The position numbers and the translations under genes were made by a program. Shown here piece by piece: positions 373-50,417 of a DNA stretch of 64,000 nucleotides (the first letter of the stretch is position 1; each line of letters opens with the position of its first letter). The stretch spans positions 19,211 to 83,210 of the forward strand of contig UQAI01000002.1 of the NCBI GenBank assembly GCA_900538885.1. Direction: 5' to 3'. Below the pieces are notes generated by a model, which worked only from the letters and a program-made list of their open reading frames with translations, was not told the DNA's origin and ran no database searches. Source of the stretch: an uncultured Mollicutes bacterium. Its GTDB lineage: Bacteria > Bacillota_I > Bacilli_A > ML615J-28 > CAG-313.

Positions 373-513
373 ATGAATACAAAAAAGAAACTCGTTAAAG
401 AAGGACTCCGTAATATTGGTAATAATTTAGTGAAAGAACAAGAAATAGAAAAAAACTTGTACTATGAAATTTCTAAAGAAATTCATCAAGACAAGAAAAA
501 AACAAATAAATAA
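373..513 (+). CDS. Small hypothetical protein, 46 aa (MNTKKKLVKEGLRNIGNNLVKEQEIEKNLYYEISKEIHQDKKKTNK).
   Basis: Short ORF absent from the track (<60 aa). It has a weak GTGGTGA RBS and sits between recX and the riboswitch. No recognisable domain. Confidence 0.2.
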   Translation: MNTKKKLVKEGLRNIGNNLVKEQEIEKNLYYEISKEIHQDKKKTNK

Positions 514-514
514 A

Positions 515-650
515 TTCAGGGCAGGGTGCAATTCCCGACCGGTGGTATAGTCCACGAGCATTAGCATGATTTGGTGAAATTCCAAAACCGATAGTGATAG
601 TCTAGATAAAAGAATTAATAAAATAATGCCCTCATAGGGGCATTTTTCTT
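515..650 (+). promoter_or_regulatory. FMN riboswitch (RFN element) with an intrinsic terminator as its expression platform.
   Basis: Near-consensus RFN core CAGGGCAGGGTGCAATTCCCGACCGGTGGTATAGTCC...GGTGAAATTCCAAAACCGATAGTGATAGTCTAGATAAAAGAA. This is followed by hairpin TGCCCTCATAGGGGCA plus a T-run at 627-650, immediately upstream of the RBS (AGAGG) of the downstream ORF. Confidence 0.85.
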
Positions 651-661
651 TAGAGGTGAAT

Positions 662-2377
662 ATGAAAAATCGTCGAGAATTAATTAATAGAATCACAAAA
701 GTTGGAATATTTGGAGCGATAAGTGTCGTTTTGTATGACTTTGTTAAATTTCCACTTCCTTTTTTTCCATCATTTTTAGAAATTAATTTTTCAATGTTAC
801 CTATCATTTTAATAGCACTTGCATATGGGCCAATTGATGCTTGTATTATTGTAATATTAAGATTTTTATTAAAACTTCCATTATCACATACGGCTTATGT
901 AGGTGAATTAGGTGATCTAATTATTGGACTTTTAATAGTGATTCCAAGTAGTTTATGTTATAAATTTAACCGCACCAAAAAAGGTGGATTAATAGCTTTA
1001 ATTATAGCTTTTTTTGTTTGGATTTTTGTGGGGACATTATCAAATTTAATTACCATTCCAATTTATATTAAAATGTTTTATGGTAATGCTACTAATTTAA
1101 TTAAAGATTTAACAATGATTCCAGGGGTTACGGAATCCAATTATATGCTAAAATATTTACTATTTGGAGCTCTTCCTTTTAATGCTTTAGTAGCGATTGT
1201 TGTATGTTTAATTACTTACTTTGTATATAAAAAAATATCAATAATATTTAAACATGATTTTTTAAATCATCAAGAAAATAGCCAAAAAGTAATGGTAATG
1301 ATTGATTCATTTAAAGGAACATTAACATCTAAAAAGGCTGGTAATATCGTAAAAGAAACTATTCAAAATAAAAATATCAAAGTAGATGTAATTTCCATTT
1401 CTGATGGTGGCGAAGGATTCCTTGAAGTTATAAAAGAAGCTAAAAAACTTGAGTATAAAAAACTTGATGTGCACGATGCAATAGGAAGAATTCATCAAGC
1501 AAGATATTTGTATGATAGTAAAAATCTTACTGCTTATTTTGAACTTGCGGAAACATGCGGCATTAATAATCTAAAAAAAGAAGAACTTGATCCATATCAT
1601 GCTTCTAGCTATGGATTAGGCGAACAAATTAAAAAAACATTATCAATCAATAAAACTAAAAAAATAGTTGTAGGTATTGGAGGAAGTGCAAGCTCAGATG
1701 CGGGAAGTGGAATGCTTGAGGCGCTTGGTGTTAAATTCTATGATAAACAAGGAAACTTAATAACTAACCTAAATAACGCATCACTCGCAAAAGTAGAAGA
1801 TGTTGATATAATAGAAACTAGTACCATTTTAAAAGATATTGAAATAGTTGTTTTAACTGATGTTACTAATCCTCTTCTTGGTGAAAAAGGTGCTGTATAT
1901 GTGTTTAGTCCCCAGAAAGGTGCAACACCAAATGATTTACCTGTGTTAGAATCCCATATTAAACATTTTGTTGATGTTATAAAAACAAAACTACCTAATT
2001 GTGATTTATCAAATACCTCAGGTGATGGTGCTGCAGGCGGGGTAGGATTTGCTTTTAGTAAAATTTTAAAAGGTACCCTAAAGTCAGGTGCTGATACAAT
2101 CCTCGATTTAGTAGATTTTAAACAAATATGTGAATCGTATGATGTAGTTATAACAGGAGAGGGAAAATTTGATAGTCAAACCTTAAATGGTAAAATCATT
2201 AAAGGTATAATGGAATATAAACCAAAACGTCTAATAGTTGTAACAGGTACTTCAGAAATTACAACTAATCAAGCTGAAGTATATGCGATAGTACCCAATA
2301 TTTGTACTTTAAATGAATCACTTAAAAATCCTGAAGAATCATTACGCAAACTCGTTAAAACAATAAAATTTAAATAA
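662..2377 (+). CDS. Fusion protein: an N-terminal RibU-like ECF transporter S component (about 200 aa, multi-TM) fused to a C-terminal glycerate kinase family domain (GlxK/GarK, PF02595-like).
   Basis: The N-terminal half matches riboflavin S-component features (NRRELINRITKVGIFGAISVVL...LPFNALVAIVV, like RibU LPFNALQ). The C-terminal half has glycerate-kinase motifs MIDSFKGTLTS, ISDGGEG, GIGGSASSDAGSGMLEALG, VLTDVTNPLLGEKGAVYVFSPQKGA, ITGEGKFDSQTLNGK. It is a single uninterrupted frame. The likely start is ATG 662 (the track uses GTG 656), with RBS AGAGG. Confidence 0.8.
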   Translation: MKNRRELINRITKVGIFGAISVVLYDFVKFPLPFFPSFLEINFSMLPIILIALAYGPIDACIIVILRFLLKLPLSHTAYVGELGDLIIGLLIVIPSSLCYKFNRTKKGGLIALIIAFFVWIFVGTLSNLITIPIYIKMFYGNATNLIKDLTMIPGVTESNYMLKYLLFGALPFNALVAIVVCLITYFVYKKISIIFKHDFLNHQENSQKVMVMIDSFKGTLTSKKAGNIVKETIQNKNIKVDVISISDGGEGFLEVIKEAKKLEYKKLDVHDAIGRIHQARYLYDSKNLTAYFELAETCGINNLKKEELDPYHASSYGLGEQIKKTLSINKTKKIVVGIGGSASSDAGSGMLEALGVKFYDKQGNLITNLNNASLAKVEDVDIIETSTILKDIEIVVLTDVTNPLLGEKGAVYVFSPQKGATPNDLPVLESHIKHFVDVIKTKLPNCDLSNTSGDGAAGGVGFAFSKILKGTLKSGADTILDLVDFKQICESYDVVITGEGKFDSQTLNGKIIKGIMEYKPKRLIVVTGTSEITTNQAEVYAIVPNICTLNESLKNPEESLRKLVKTIKFK

Positions 2378-2428
2378 GTTGAAAAAAATTGTAAATAGTG
2401 CTAAAATATGGTCAAGAGGTATAGAAAT

Positions 2429-3097
2429 ATGAGTGAAAATAGAAAATGTAGTAATTGTGGATTTGAATTAAATGAGGGGGCAATGTTTTGTACAAACTGT
2501 GGGATGAGACAGGTTATAAAAGCAGTTCAAGAACCAAAACCACGCTGTGTTGAGTGCGGTCATGAAATTGATAAAGATACAGTATTTTGTACAACATGCG
2601 GAGTAAAACAACCTAAAAACACACAACCAACAATACCAGTAGTTAAACAAACAAAAACATGTGTTAATTGTGGTGCCCCATTAGATGATGATTCAGTATT
2701 TTGTACAGAATGTGGAGCCAAAATAGAAAAAGAAGGAAAAGAAAAAGTAGTCTTAGAAGAAACAACTAAAAACGTATGTCCAACTTGCAAGGCAGTGTTA
2801 GAAGAAGGAGCTTCATTTTGTACAGAATGTGGAGCCAAAATAGAAAAAGAAGGAAAAGAAAAGGTAGTCTTAGAAGAAACAACTAAAAACGTATGTCCAA
2901 CTTGCAAGGCAGTGTTAGAAGAAGGAGTTTCATTTTGTACAGAATGTGGAGCCAAAATAAAAGGTGAAACTCCATCAAGTCATAGTGATAACTCAGTTGA
3001 AGTACTTAAGAAACTAAAAGAACTCCGCGAGTTAGAACTTATTACTGAAGAAGAATACATTGAAAAGAAAAAAGAAGTATTAAATAATTTAAGATAA
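2429..3097 (+). CDS. Cytoplasmic protein with five zinc-ribbon repeats and a C-terminal SHOCT domain.
   Basis: Five CxxC-(11-12)-CxxC units (CSNCG..FCTNCG, CVECG..FCTTCG, CVNCG..FCTECG, CPTCK..FCTECG x2). C-terminal VEVLKKLKELRELELITEEEYIEKKKEVL is SHOCT-like. RBS AGAGG lies before ATG 2429. ATG 2408 falls inside the promoter TTGAAA-17-TAAAAT. Confidence 0.7.
   Translation: MSENRKCSNCGFELNEGAMFCTNCGMRQVIKAVQEPKPRCVECGHEIDKDTVFCTTCGVKQPKNTQPTIPVVKQTKTCVNCGAPLDDDSVFCTECGAKIEKEGKEKVVLEETTKNVCPTCKAVLEEGASFCTECGAKIEKEGKEKVVLEETTKNVCPTCKAVLEEGVSFCTECGAKIKGETPSSHSDNSVEVLKKLKELRELELITEEEYIEKKKEVLNNLR
2699..2960 (+). repeat. 117-bp direct tandem repeat: two full copies plus about 27 bp of a third, differing at 2 positions. 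It encodes a duplicated 39-aa zinc-ribbon unit.
   Basis: Copies at 2699-2815 and 2816-2932 differ only by aaaaagtag/aaaaggtag and gagcttc/gagtttc. The period is 117 bp, so it is frame-preserving. Confidence 0.9.
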
Positions 3098-4778: not shown

Positions 4779-5591
4779 TTATTCTTTATGTTCAAAAAAG
4801 TTTTTAAGAAATTTTAACACCCCTTGATTTTTCGCATCATCAGTTTGGTATTTAGCATGTTTTAATAGTTCAGGGTGTGCATTCTTCATCGCAACACTGA
4901 TATGAGCAGATTCAAGTAGTCCAATATCGTTGTGTCCATCGCCTATCGCAATCGTATGTTTATGATCGATATGATAGTACTCAATTGCTTCTAAAAATCC
5001 TTTCTTTTTATCAACTAAAGGATTATATATTTCCACAATATTAAATCCATCCATATACCAATAGCGTGAAAAAAGTTTGCCATGATATTCATTTTGAATG
5101 TAATTTTCAAATAAATTAATGTGGTCTTTATCAATAAAGAAAAGTGCACCATTAGGATTGTCAGGTAAACTATCCTTTAATTCACCAATATGAAGGATAC
5201 CACCATCAACATGCAAGAAAGGGTGAATTTCATCATTATAATTCATCACATAAATATCATCAATAATTTCACAAAAAACATTAATTAAGGCTGGTCTAAT
5301 ATGTTCAATAATTTCTAATAAATCATCTTTATCAATTCTTAAATCAGTAACAGGAAATGATGAATCGGTAGGATTAGTAACCCTCGCGCCATTATAATTA
5401 ATAAGAGGAGTATTAAGCCCTAACTTTTTATAAATAAAATAACTTGAGCGAAATGGTCTTCCGGTAGCGAGCATAATAATGTTTCCGTCATCTTTTAGTT
5501 TTCGTAAATATGCGAAAGTCTCATCATCACAAGTGCTAAAGTCAGGCATAAGGGTTCCATCTAAATCTAATACAATTAAATAAGGTTTCAT
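4779..5591 (-). CDS. Cof-type HAD-IIB family phosphatase.
   Basis: N-terminal MKPYLIVLDLDGTLM (DxDGT motif). Also ATGRPF, and AIGDGHNDIGLLESAHISVAMKNA (GDGxND). RBS GGAGG lies 6 nt before ATG 5591. The track's longer TTG 5609 start is unlikely. Confidence 0.8.
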   Translation of the reverse strand: MKPYLIVLDLDGTLMPDFSTCDDETFAYLRKLKDDGNIIMLATGRPFRSSYFIYKKLGLNTPLINYNGARVTNPTDSSFPVTDLRIDKDDLLEIIEHIRPALINVFCEIIDDIYVMNYNDEIHPFLHVDGGILHIGELKDSLPDNPNGALFFIDKDHINLFENYIQNEYHGKLFSRYWYMDGFNIVEIYNPLVDKKKGFLEAIEYYHIDHKHTIAIGDGHNDIGLLESAHISVAMKNAHPELLKHAKYQTDDAKNQGVLKFLKNFFEHKE

Positions 5592-5730
5592 AAGCATCCT
5601 CCATTTCAATTTATAATTATAACTTAATTTGTCGATAATTGCAATGAAAAAAGTTTCTTATTTTTTTGGTTGCACTTTTAAAGTATTTGTAGTAAAATTA
5701 ATAGATAGCAAATATAAGGGAAAAAAGAAT

Positions 5731-9785: not shown

Positions 9786-10415
9786 TTGCTGGAAGATAAT
9801 AAATTAATTATATATAAAAATAATGAAGGTAATATTATAGTAGATGCCATTTATAAAGATGAAACATTATGGTTATCGCAAAAAGGAATGTCTAAGGTAT
9901 TTGAAGTAGGTGTTCCATCAATATCGAAACATTTAAAAAATATATTTGAAGAAAATGAATTAGACAAATAATCAGTTGTTTCCAAAATGGAAATAACTGC
10001 TAAAGATGGTAAAGAATATAATACTGAAGTTTATAGTTTAGATGCCATAATCGCTGTTGGATATAGAATTAATTCGAAAAAAGATCATATGGGATTAACA
10101 ACTTGGAAAAATTCTCCCGATGGTTTAATATATAAATATGATGTAATTGTTGCAAAGAATTATTTAAACGAAGAAGAAATGAATAATTTAAAAGATTTAA
10201 CAAATATATTTTTAGTATTTGCTGAGGATGAAGCAAAACAAAGACATATTATGACAATGAAGGAAGCTGGCTATATTGTTGCACTTGCACATGATGCAGT
10301 TGAAAAAGCTGAAAAAGAATATGAAAAATTTAGAGTTATACAAGATCAAAAATACATTTCTTCAATGGATGAATTCTATAATAAATATTTAAATGAAAAT
10401 AACGATAGTGAATAA
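9786..10415 (+). pseudogene. RhuM-family (virulence protein RhuM) gene interrupted by an in-frame TAA stop at 9969-9971.
   Basis: ORFs 9786-9971 and 9987-10415 are in the same frame. Together they reconstitute a RhuM-like sequence (LIIYKNNEGNIIVDAIYKDETLWLSQKGMSKVF...HLKNIFEENELDK*SVVSKMEITAKDGKEYNTEVYSLDAIIAVGYRINSKK). Confidence 0.7.
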
Positions 10416-10496
10416 AGAAAATAGGGGTAATAACGAATTATGGAAAACCTTTATATAAGAAGGTGAAAATTATGATTATAGCATATACTAAAAAAT

Positions 10497-11153
10497 ATGA
10501 TGAATGCATTTTTGCAATTTAATGGTAAAGAAATATTACACAATGTGGGAAAAATATCGGCTAATGTTGCAAAAGAATTAGCTTATGAAGAGTATGCTAA
10601 TGATGAAAAATGGCAACAACTTGTTGCCAAATTACCTTGGGGTCATAATTTATTACTAATTGAAAAAATCAAAAACAAAGATATTAGAAAAATATATACT
10701 GAAAATACTATTAAAAATGGCTGGAGTAGAAATGTATTATTAGAATTAGGGAAAGGATTTAGTTTTGTCGGTAATCAATATAAAATTTCGGTTGATAATC
10801 AAGATTATTATATTGATTTACTATTTTATCATTTGGAACTTAGATGTTATGTAGTTGTTGAATTAAAAACAAGTGAATTTAAACCAGAATATATAGGGCA
10901 ATTAGGATTTTATGTAACAGCGGTTAATGAAACAATAAAAAAAGAGTGTGATTCACCTTCGATTGGTTTATTATTATGTAGAGGAAAGAACAGAGTAACG
11001 GTAGATTGGTCTTTGAAATCTACAAATGTTCCTATAGGCGTTTCAACTTATAAATTGAAAGAACAACTACCAAAAGAATTAATAGATAAATTACCAACAG
11101 AAGAAGACATAAATTTATATTTGAATGTAGGGAAAGGTGGTAACAATGAATAA
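10497..11153 (+). pseudogene. YhcG-like (DUF1016) PDDEXK nuclease, C-terminal two-thirds only. The N-terminal domain is missing.
   Basis: PDDEXK core YYIDLLFYHLELRCYVVVELKTSEFKPEYIGQLGFY and a C-terminal LPTEEDI tail typical of YhcG. No upstream sequence encodes the N-terminal DUF1016_N part. Confidence 0.55.
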
Positions 11154-12804: not shown

Positions 12805-14094
12805 ATGAATTTAATAAAGAGAGATCTATATCTTAAACAATTAATTAATAGAAAAGAAAATGGTTTAATTAAAATAATTACTGGTATAAGACGCTGTGGG
12901 AAAAGCTATTTGCTATTTAAAATTTTTTACAACTATTTAATTGAATTAGGAATAAAAGAAGATAATATTATTACACTTGCTTTGGATGATGATAAGAACC
13001 GTGAATATCGTAATCCTGATAAACTTTCTGATTATTTATATTCAAGAATTACAAATAAGAACGAAATGTTCTATATTTTTTTGGATGAGATTCAATTTGC
13101 ATTTAGTTTTAAAAATAATGATGATGGTTACTCTCGTGTATATGGAATTTTAAATGGCCTACTACGTTTGGATAATGTTGATATTTATGTTACAGGTTCT
13201 AATTCCAAATTCTTATCTTCTGATATTATGACCGAGTTTAGAGACCGTGGCGATGAAGTGCGAGTTTATCCGTTATCTTTTTCTGAATTTTATTCATCAA
13301 ATCTTTGGAATGATAAATATGAAGCCTGGAATGAGTATACTAGGTTTGGTGGATTACCTATGATATTAACTAAAAAAACCGATGATGAAAAGAGCAATTA
13401 TTTAAAGAATTTGTTGAATAAGACTTACATTCAAGATGTAATAGAAAGAAATAATTTGAAAGGAAATAACATAATTGATACGCTAGTTGATATACTTGCT
13501 TCATCAATTGGTTCATTGACAAACCCGACAAAACTTGCAAGAACTTTTGCATCAAATAATATTAAAACCACCGATGTAACGCTAGCAACTTATATAGATT
13601 ATTTAATTGATGCTTTTATGATTAACAAGGCTCAAAGATACGATATAAAAGGGAAAAAATATATTGATTCGCCTTTTAAATTTTATTTTACAGATATTGG
13701 AATTCGTAATTGTCGATTAAATTATCGCCAACAAGAGCCAACACATATAATGGAAAATATAATTTATAATGAACTATTAATTCGTGGTTATAATGTCGAT
13801 GTTGGTATAATAGAGCATACAACAAGAAATAAAGAAGGTAAACAAAAGAATATTCAACAAGAAGTTGATTTTATTTGTAATACTGCAGATAATCGTTATT
13901 ATATTCAATCAGCATTTTCAATACCTAATGAAGAAAAAATGATTCAAGAAACATCGCAGTTAGATAAAATTGGTGATTCATTTAAAAAAATAATTATAAC
14001 CCAAGATTTAGGTAAACCATGGCGTACTGATAAGGGCTATTTAGTTATTAATATTTTAGATTTCTTATTAAATCCATCTAGTTTAGATATATAA
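12805..14094 (+). CDS. AAA-family ATPase with a DUF4143 C-terminal domain (COG1373-like).
   Basis: Walker A GIRRCGKSYLL, Walker B IFLDEIQ. It has its own promoter (TTGACT-17-TATAAT, about 12742-12770) and a downstream terminator. Confidence 0.75.
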   Translation: MNLIKRDLYLKQLINRKENGLIKIITGIRRCGKSYLLFKIFYNYLIELGIKEDNIITLALDDDKNREYRNPDKLSDYLYSRITNKNEMFYIFLDEIQFAFSFKNNDDGYSRVYGILNGLLRLDNVDIYVTGSNSKFLSSDIMTEFRDRGDEVRVYPLSFSEFYSSNLWNDKYEAWNEYTRFGGLPMILTKKTDDEKSNYLKNLLNKTYIQDVIERNNLKGNNIIDTLVDILASSIGSLTNPTKLARTFASNNIKTTDVTLATYIDYLIDAFMINKAQRYDIKGKKYIDSPFKFYFTDIGIRNCRLNYRQQEPTHIMENIIYNELLIRGYNVDVGIIEHTTRNKEGKQKNIQQEVDFICNTADNRYYIQSAFSIPNEEKMIQETSQLDKIGDSFKKIIITQDLGKPWRTDKGYLVINILDFLLNPSSLDI

Positions 14095-50303: not shown

Positions 50304-50417
50304 TTTTAAAAAAGTCGTATTAGTATAGTATATAGTATAAAAGTCTCTGCCGTAGACAGTAGGTGCTACGTTGTAGCTTAATTTCCTACCGAGGAAAAAT
50401 TTCAGGAGGTGAAAACA
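50304..50417 (+). promoter_or_regulatory. rplJ leader region: internal promoter plus a structured element, putatively the L10(L12)4 autoregulatory leader.
   Basis: TAGTATAGTATATAGTATAAAA AT-rich -10-like region, then GTCTCTGCCGTAGACAGTAGGTGCTACGTTGTAGC stem-loops ahead of RBS AGGAGGTG. Confidence 0.4.

Follow-up and report, generated by a model that had tools for sequence, protein, structure and literature searches.

Vitamin importers of the energy-coupling factor (ECF) class are as a rule membrane subunits with nothing attached, which use a single ATPase module in common. In Firmicutes the gene of the riboflavin subunit RibU (ypaA in Bacillus subtilis, ribU in Lactococcus lactis) forms a unit with a flavin mononucleotide (FMN) riboswitch, in which an RF00050 aptamer and a terminator stand 5' of the gene. 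The same aptamer and terminator are present in the stretch of 64,000 nucleotides studied here, a part of contig UQAI01000002.1 from an uncultured Mollicutes bacterium (further referred to as the window), where the ribU gene continues in frame into a domain of the glycerate kinase family. The fold, the conserved core and the helix-1 docking motif of the encoded RibU are the same as in the solved structures 3P5N and 5KBW. It differs from the classical RibUs in that it bears, or in relatives is coupled to, a kinase of 363 amino acids (aa), and in a partner-specific signature on its cytoplasmic face. The kinase domain in turn shares with class-I glycerate kinases (GlxK and GarK of Escherichia coli; structures 1TO6 and 3CWC) the two-domain fold, the glycine-rich loops and eight predicted active-site residues, and differs from them in being tethered to the membrane, controlled by flavin and without glycerate-related neighbours in the contexts seen. 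To our knowledge, no flavin role has been described for this kinase family.

Pairs of a vitamin transporter with a salvage kinase, such as thiW-thiM, PnuC/NadR and RibM/PnuX with RibF, are generally known and show the same co-transcription under a regulator that senses the phosphorylated product. An operon that pairs an ECF S component with the salvage kinase of its cargo, or a Pnu transporter whose cargo is trapped by a kinase, follows the usual logic of vitamin uptake. In these pairs, however, the kinase family is already assigned to the vitamin and the proteins are not fused, whereas here they form one polypeptide. About the anatomy of the locus, namely a riboswitch, a terminator and a single RibU-kinase polypeptide, we have hardly any doubt. 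Its features are the following (positions are those of the window).

508..621, forward strand: FMN riboswitch aptamer (RFN element), Rfam RF00050.
625..650, forward strand: intrinsic terminator of the riboswitch expression platform, a hairpin at 625-644 followed by a U-run, from a terminator scan and from the minimum-free-energy and centroid folds.
652..664, forward strand: Shine-Dalgarno sequence GAGG at 653-656 and start codon ATG at 662-664, from reading of the sequence; the identical database protein P0001 begins at the same ATG.
662..2377, forward strand: RibU::glycerate-kinase-family fusion, one open reading frame (ORF) of 571 aa, stop included, from the ORF list, Pfam, homologue clusters and AlphaFold.
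662..1249, forward strand: RibU-type ECF S component, aa 1-196, with six helices and the small-xxx-Ala ECF-docking motif G15/A19.
698..700, forward strand: Lys13, where helix 1 ends on the cytoplasmic side; invariant in kinase-linked RibUs only.
983..988, forward strand: Gly108-Gly109 in the cytoplasmic loop between helices 4 and 5 (AlphaFold secondary structure), constrained only in kinase-linked RibUs.
1226..1285, forward strand: cytoplasmic extension of helix 6, Y189-x3-S193-x2-F196-K197-x-D199-F200, then a flexible hinge, aa 199-208.
1286..2374, forward strand: class-I glycerate-kinase-family domain, aa 209-571 (363 aa), PF02595 and TIGR00045.

An Rfam search, suggested as a check in an initial annotation of this stretch made from its letters, gives an RF00050 match at 508-621 over the full model (1-138) with 102.3 bits against the gathering score of 66.2 (E 1.3e-22; cmscan). 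The initial annotation had placed a textbook RFN element with its terminator at 515-650; both elements stand, and the aptamer starts at 508, not at 515. The alignment is identical to the consensus at the blocks GGGCAGGGUG, CCGG-GGUA, GGUGAAAUUCC, CCGA and AGUC. In the ligand pocket of the FMN type, G residues contact the ribityl phosphate and A residues stack on the flavin, and variant subtypes are A-substituted. Criteria for telling variant FMN riboswitch subtypes apart, together with this numbering, are given in PMC6298564; compared with them by blocks rather than by single positions, the alignment fits the canonical consensus, and a variant subtype that does not sense FMN is disfavoured. 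The terminator hairpin is GC-rich and has 8 pairs, is followed by TTTTTCTTT, and occurs in both folds. A comparable GC hairpin with a U-run stands 3' of the aptamer in 13 related loci, among them fused, split and RibU-only ones. The FMN riboswitch lies directly 5' of ribU in 27 of 27 related genome loci, and it precedes the ribU-kinase pair in every split-gene locus with upstream sequence. By its sequence, the riboswitch is of the canonical, FMN-sensing, transcription-terminating type and is predicted to turn the gene off.

The reading frame begins at GTG 656 or ATG 662 and is open up to the stop codon at 2375-2377, without an internal stop or change of frame. According to Pfam, PF12822 (ECF_trnsprt) matches aa 9-189 (1.2e-20, 74.7 bits against a cut-off of 30.7) and PF02595 (Gly_kinase) matches aa 210-568 (5.6e-104, 348.5 bits, profile positions 1-367 of 372). 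By sequence, only RibU chains in PDB match the N-terminal half, and this half is closer to the solved RibUs than to S components of other vitamins. The internal ATGs at 1292 and 1298 follow AAAATAGCCAAAAAGTA, in which there is no GGAGG-like site. Thus the initial annotation had correctly read a RibU-like S component, a single ORF that fuses two full domains, and internal start codons without a ribosome-binding site. An AlphaFold model of the fusion has a predicted local distance difference test score (pLDDT) of 88 and a predicted template modelling score (pTM) of 0.62. The NCBI annotation of the protein is merely 'glycerate kinase'.

It could be supposed that a sequencing or assembly error at about 1240-1320, a missed stop or a frameshift, merged two genes, and split versions of the ribU-kinase pair do exist in related species. 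In a search of 5.8 billion proteins, however, P0001 was identical to the fusion over 571 aa and had 27 member sequences from independent assemblies. About 78 further clusters (567-608 aa, 43-81% identity) share the two-domain architecture in one continuous frame across a conserved junction, and seven species-representative genomes, all of them metagenome-assembled genomes (MAGs) of uncultured gut or rumen Bacilli/Bacillota, bear the fusion. MAGs with the fusion include CAVJDT01, CAADXH01, CAZDPJ01, CAKPBI01, CAKPAZ01, CAMODB01, ONHH01 and the genomes to which the proteins MBR6515387.1 and MGM9899693.1 belong. Hence the junction is not a sequencing error in the window; such an artefact is effectively refuted and has next to no probability, and the true fusion that the initial annotation had preferred over two genes is upheld. 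The search for fusions of an S component with a glycerate kinase, which it had also advised, yields about 80 protein clusters in total, with 43-100% identity, from uncultured gut Bacilli. Full-length fusions account for 4 among the best 150 representatives at 50% clustering, so that the fusion clade is real but narrow. The RibU and kinase halves co-diverge (r = 0.87 for 1830 pairs; mean identity 54% and 51%), and since they diverged in step, both are under similar purifying selection.

The standalone kinases nearest to the fusion are no independent glycerate kinase genes. The context of ten kinases that are standalone or fused C-terminally was looked up, and five of them (P0080, P0088, P0118, P0098 and P0094) sit directly 3' of a separate ribU. 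These split pairs share the recX...ftsK neighbourhood with the window. The ribU stop and the kinase start overlap in them (ATGA, 16 or 26 nucleotides) or are 1-13 nucleotides apart, a layout by which the two genes are predicted to be translationally coupled cistrons. Fused and split forms interleave in the neighbour-joining tree of the kinases, hence the pair was fused or split more than once. Judged from these loci, the pairing of ribU with the kinase is ancient and has been kept, fused or coupled, in a clade of uncultured Bacilli from gut and rumen. In 20 RibU orthologues that are more distant (Anaeroplasmataceae, Acholeplasmatales and relatives), the riboswitch is present and no kinase lies within 6 kb. 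Their loci have exactly the classical riboswitch-ribU layout, which is the putative arrangement from which the fusion locus derives.

For the comparison of RibUs, 66 kinase-linked proteins (61 fused and 5 split) were set against these 20 RibU-only orthologues. Both groups conserve a core for binding and transport made up of Y25, F30, P33, F35-P36, F38-L39, F43-S44, G56, K71, T77, G81-E82, D85, W120, N128, P133, N160, Y165, P172-F173-N174 and T185. S components dock on EcfT through an AxxxA-type motif of helix 1 (PMC11109136), and the fusions have G, A or S at position 15 in 61 of 61 proteins and A at position 19 in 58 of 61. Given that the core and the docking motif are the same as in RibU-only orthologues, the cargo of the fused RibU and its reliance on the ECF module are probably unchanged. 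Binding and transport of riboflavin are likewise predicted from the riboswitch and from the core residues common to RibU-only orthologues. No EcfA, EcfA' or EcfT turned up in general scans of about 25 ORFs of the window, up to about 34 kb.

Ten positions are invariant, at a level of at least 90%, only in kinase-linked RibUs: K13, L50, G108, G109, Y189, S193, F196, K197, D199 and F200. In the AlphaFold topology nine of the ten are cytoplasmic: they occur where helix 1 begins, in the loop that joins helices 4 and 5, and where helix 6 ends. Position 13 is K in 66 of 66 linked RibUs and F, L, I, M or another residue, never K, in the 20 RibU-only orthologues. Fused and split forms share the helix 6 signature unchanged, whereas it varies among RibU-only orthologues; the hinge has a pLDDT below 50 at aa 199-203. 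Cytoplasmic segments are more conserved in linked than in unlinked RibUs by 0.22-0.31, whereas for the membrane and outer segments the difference is only −0.06 to +0.11. The cytoplasmic signature is present in all five split RibUs. A simple binomial calculation for the cytoplasmic clustering gives p of about 3e-5, a value which is overstated, given that the tail positions depend on one another and that the linked proteins together make up a clade. The constraint on the cytoplasmic face suggests docking of the kinase, given that it is gained only on the face where the kinase must sit and is kept where the two proteins are separate polypeptides, a pattern that neutral fusion does not predict.

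The nearest RibU-only orthologue (L008 1097-1792, 50% identity, from a rabbit-gut Bacilli MAG) keeps G108, Y189, S193, K197 and D199. It has a charged tail of 30 aa in place of the kinase and may have lost its partner secondarily.

We know of no ligand-bound structure of a class-I glycerate kinase. Eight active-site residues (D8, K11, D43, D191, Q209, E286, D290 and K297) were predicted from the ligand-free structure 1TO6 by Cheek et al. (PMC1079889). All of them are kept in the fusion, as D215, K218, D248, D400, Q418, E500, D504 and K511, and they are invariant or nearly so in 117 tabulated sequences of the subfamily; the domain should therefore be an active phosphotransferase. The initial annotation had described a full glycerate kinase domain with all catalytic motifs. 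The domain is indeed complete, and the motifs come down to these eight predicted residues.

Ten glycerate kinases were used as references: E. coli GlxK and GarK, four enzymes from Firmicutes, and one each from a mannosylglycerate operon, from a locus beside a sugar-diacid regulator, from Bacteroidota and from Rhizobium. The kinase domain is 30-37% identical to them. Position 309 is Arg in 10 of the 10 references and Leu in 86% of the subfamily; position 253, next to the DGGEG motif, is Thr in 9 of the 10 and Phe in 100% of the subfamily. G372 is replaced mostly by N, A398 by L and P513 by I, and the C-terminal segment of the subfamily is shorter. These replacements would fit an altered, less acidic substrate, for which they are weak evidence. 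The equivalog models of GlxK and GarK are failed (NF007401, 205.6 bits against 625; NF007668, 187.4 against 686), as is expected for any distant member given that the models are built around enterobacterial enzymes. The initial annotation had named a canonical GlxK as a finding that would speak against its reading; the domain belongs to the same family, and it fails these models and lacks the shared Arg and Thr. Two of the references lie in clearly glycerate-related operons (Exiguobacterium and Pseudomonas). Neither the window nor the related loci examined showed a glycerate-related gene (transporter, tartronate semialdehyde reductase or mannosylglycerate hydrolase). The ORF has no match to a known flavokinase family (PF01687, archaeal RibK) in Pfam and NCBIfam; hence phosphorylation of riboflavin, if any, would be carried out by an analogue and not by a member of these families.

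Members of a sister branch of the kinase subfamily are found next to a flavin gene of another kind. In four of the four loci examined, with differing upstream genes, they belong to a tightly packed operon kinase-HAD(IA) phosphatase-truB-ribF-PNP-rpsO-pnp, and in two of these loci the kinase is fused to the HAD domain (575-577 aa). Elsewhere in the subfamily, the kinase gene overlaps or adjoins an upstream gene that is unrelated. The loci are as follows.

L033 5001-8566: sister-branch operon.
L034 5001-8504: sister-branch operon.
L045 5001-8540: sister-branch operon.
L046 5001-8534: sister-branch operon.
L037 4275-6086: subfamily member overlapping or abutting an unrelated upstream gene.
L053 1587-3514: subfamily member overlapping or abutting an unrelated upstream gene.
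L047 741-3417: subfamily member overlapping or abutting an unrelated upstream gene.

A riboflavin kinase fused to a HAD-type FMN hydrolase is known from plants (AtFMN/FHy, PMC9678776). The sister-branch kinase and HAD phosphatase beside truB-ribF parallel it as a kinase and a HAD phosphatase in a flavin context, with the difference that the plant kinase is a PF01687 flavokinase, whereas the bacterial HAD is nearest to phosphoglycolate phosphatases.

The unrelated neighbours are a DUF6873 gene, nadC (quinolinate phosphoribosyltransferase) 3' of RNase J, and an AP_endonuc_2 gene with a YczE-like membrane protein downstream. For the AP_endonuc_2 neighbour of P0104, a match to hydroxypyruvate isomerase was not significant. 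Other long members of the family were considered as independent S-component fusions, which was ruled out. P0191 (604 aa) and P0220 (543 aa) are rare fusions of the types ABC_tran::kinase and Rrf2 regulator::kinase, P0134 (603 aa) has a C-terminal extension of 235 aa without an assigned domain, and P0113 (586 aa) has an N-terminus of 228 aa without a Pfam match.

RibF, TruB and HAD from the sister loci have no match by tblastn in the window or in the fetched fusion loci, the search covering these loci only. A profile search for RibF returned 19 close sister-branch clusters followed by a steep drop, and the best 120 matches are all bifunctional. None of these 120 is labelled as coming from an annotated fusion-bearing MAG, where labels tie few proteins to genomes (two fusion proteins have accessions).

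A partnership of RibU and the kinase, physical or functional, is somewhat more probable than not in view of the data above. Among the roles considered, phosphorylation of the flavin delivered by RibU is the likeliest; we propose it tentatively, with the balance somewhat against it. In this scheme the kinase, which a hinge of about ten residues connects to the end of helix 6, would sit on the cytoplasmic face of RibU and would use ATP to phosphorylate the incoming flavin, converting riboflavin to FMN or carrying out a closely related step. Phosphorylation at the exit of the transporter would make uptake irreversible, with transport followed by metabolic trapping. The product FMN would be the ligand that shuts the operon off; the protein would thus make the riboswitch's own ligand, by which a short feedback loop would be closed. 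At low FMN no terminator would form and the importer and the kinase would be made in a strict 1:1 ratio, and at high FMN both would be off. A wider proposal is doubtful. In it the domain would be a riboflavin (flavin) kinase of a third type, without homology to the others, the RibU unit would resemble group translocation, and the whole subfamily, kinase::HAD included, would be a new flavin-homeostasis module of genome-reduced gut Bacilli; in the fusion-bearing genomes the domain might even take the place of the kinase half of RibF.

Several results weigh against an action on flavin. The domain scores 315.5 bits with TIGR00045, the general model for glycerate kinases, whose cut-off is 168.45. 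Phe253 and residues other than Arg at position 309 are common among 144 more distant uncharacterised representatives of the family and are no unique signature, for which reason the substituted 'specificity' residues were given less weight as evidence for a new substrate. Members with and without a link to RibU differ by no distinguishing kinase residue, and some members adjoin the nadC, DUF6873 or AP_endonuc_2 gene with no flavin gene in view; on these two grounds the kinase seems to have one and the same function in flavin and non-flavin contexts. Where a genome has the sister-branch kinase, a canonical bifunctional RibF is encoded two genes downstream, so that a second riboflavin kinase would be redundant there, and the HAD of this branch has its closest, sub-threshold similarity to phosphoglycolate phosphatases, a hint of C2/C3 acid chemistry. 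As for docking, AlphaFold gives no confident fixed orientation of the two domains (pTM 0.62, low-confidence hinge), and the cytoplasmic-face signal, with its interdependent tail positions, could partly be an effect of the clade.

In the main rival explanation the domain would be an ordinary D-glycerate salvage enzyme feeding glycolysis, which landed downstream of ribU in an ancestor of the clade, was inherited vertically and was repeatedly fused by stop loss or frame shift, with flavin control and the membrane tether as tolerated side effects. Such an origin agrees with the passed TIGR00045 cut-off, with the eight predicted catalytic residues and the fold of 1TO6 and 3CWC that the domain keeps, with the resemblance of the HAD partner to phosphoglycolate phosphatase and with the narrowness of the fusion (4 of the best 150 representatives). 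The window contains glycolytic and glycogen genes, hence phosphoglycerate would have a destination in this genome. Moreover, the unrelated operons and the sporadic ABC ATPase or Rrf2 fusions suggest that the kinase gene often overlaps whatever is upstream, and since the whole recX...ftsK neighbourhood is syntenic, the adjacency of ribU and the kinase could be merely inherited. Left unexplained, however, are the cytoplasmic face of RibU, which is invariant only with the kinase, split forms included, and the second, independent juxtaposition with ribF. Nor does any context looked up contain a glycerate-related gene; the Arg and Thr common to reference glycerate kinases are replaced; and an FMN off-switch on a housekeeping salvage enzyme has no obvious logic. 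We consider this explanation possible and, on the whole, unlikely. A kinase that is docked on RibU and has another role is distinctly less likely. It might act on a different substrate of flavin turnover, such as a ribityl or polyol fragment or a flavin analogue, or serve as an ATP- or metabolite-dependent gate or helper for RibU toppling and the ECF cycle. The constraint on the cytoplasmic face and the substituted candidate specificity residues agree with this, as does the AxxxA-type motif, whose retention implies that the ECF module is still used, so that the kinase must coexist with it. A precedent exists in E. coli, where GlxK is reported to bind and activate allantoinase, which itself binds the allantoin transporter (PMC10163214). 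This GlxK-AllB-AllW system, as described there, is likewise a class-I glycerate kinase in contact with a transporter-associated complex, and differs in being non-covalent, devoted to purine/allantoin catabolism, with glycerate as the true substrate and with no riboswitch. There is, however, no positive evidence for a particular alternative substrate or for gating, the full conservation of the catalytic residues argues for real phosphotransfer, and the same type of kinase works without RibU in other lineages.

Coupling of the kinase to the flavin importer, one of two hypotheses in the initial annotation, is thus favoured, short of proof, by the constraint on the cytoplasmic face, the deep conservation of the pair and the ribF neighbours. 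The other hypothesis was a stop-codon-loss fusion of two unrelated neighbours. Its account of the origin agrees with the split, coupled pairs in sister lineages; the word 'unrelated' is doubtful, because the pair is conserved over deep divergence, the RibU face is constrained only with the kinase, and relatives of the kinase stand beside ribF.

In the literature searched, no paper connects glycerate kinases to FMN riboswitches, to RibU or to riboflavin kinase. Joint matches for 'RibU' and 'glycerate kinase' are all papers on ribulose bisphosphate (RuBP) and photorespiration, and DUF6873 has no match there. A survey of the S-component fold and its fusions (PMC11109136) leaves glycerate unmentioned. 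What is new here is an enzyme partner, undescribed before, on a classical FMN riboswitch-RibU unit, and there is a substantial chance that the locus hides a new analogue of riboflavin kinase. A conserved S component with an enzyme fused to it or docked on its cytoplasmic side would be a new architecture for the ECF transporter class, and one would ask how RibU can topple on the ECF module while it bears a passenger domain of 40 kDa. Should imported flavin be the substrate of the kinase, the locus would provide a riboflavin kinase of a new, analogous kind, the first vitamin importer joined covalently to a kinase, and a compact case of a riboswitch that senses the product of the protein under its control. 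For annotation, thousands of gut-metagenome proteins are named 'glycerate kinase' from family membership alone, and for this subfamily the name may be wrong. Were the domain just a glycerate kinase, the fused and split forms would still be a well-documented natural series, useful for the study of how gene fusions arise and persist in reduced genomes.

Several other features of the window and of the related loci were recorded.

373-513, forward strand: small unannotated ORF between recX and the FMN riboswitch, MNTKKKLVKEGLRNIGNNLVKEQEIEKNLYYEISKEIHQDKKKTNK in the window.
L001 5712-5849: counterpart of the small ORF.
L004 5643-5771: counterpart of the small ORF.
L029 5670-5795: counterpart of the small ORF.
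L031 3911-4024: counterpart of the small ORF.
L035 4013-4141: counterpart of the small ORF.
2408-3097: protein of 229 aa with five zinc-ribbon units, directly 3' of the fusion gene.
4779-5609, reverse strand: Cof-type HAD-IIB phosphatase, which also accompanies the ribU-kinase pair in L028, L029, L031 and L035 as a conserved neighbour.
50332-50414, forward strand: ribosomal protein L10 leader, RF00557, 5' of rplJ-rplL-rpoB-rpoC.

The small ORF (38-47 aa) is conserved in most kinase-linked loci and absent from RibU-only loci, and has no Pfam or NCBIfam match. Its stop touches the 5' edge of the aptamer in the window, and in other loci the gap is about 37-45 nucleotides; it may be part of the riboswitch leader transcript. 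Inside the zinc-ribbon ORF, a tandem duplication of 117 nucleotides at 2698-2959 on the forward strand (2.2 copies, 98% identical) adds a zinc-ribbon repeat of 39 aa and appears to be recent. The Cof-type HAD-IIB phosphatase has a sub-threshold match to 'YcsE-related riboflavin metabolism phosphatase' (68 bits against 220). Fragments of RhuM-family and YhcG (PDDEXK nuclease) genes and an AAA_14/DUF4143 ATPase occupy 9987-11153 and 12805-14094 on the forward strand. They interrupt the signal peptidase-ylqF-rnhB-topA order of L028, L029 and L038 and are probably the remnant of a mobile element or of a defence island. The L10 leader scores 50.6 bits against a gathering score of 44.

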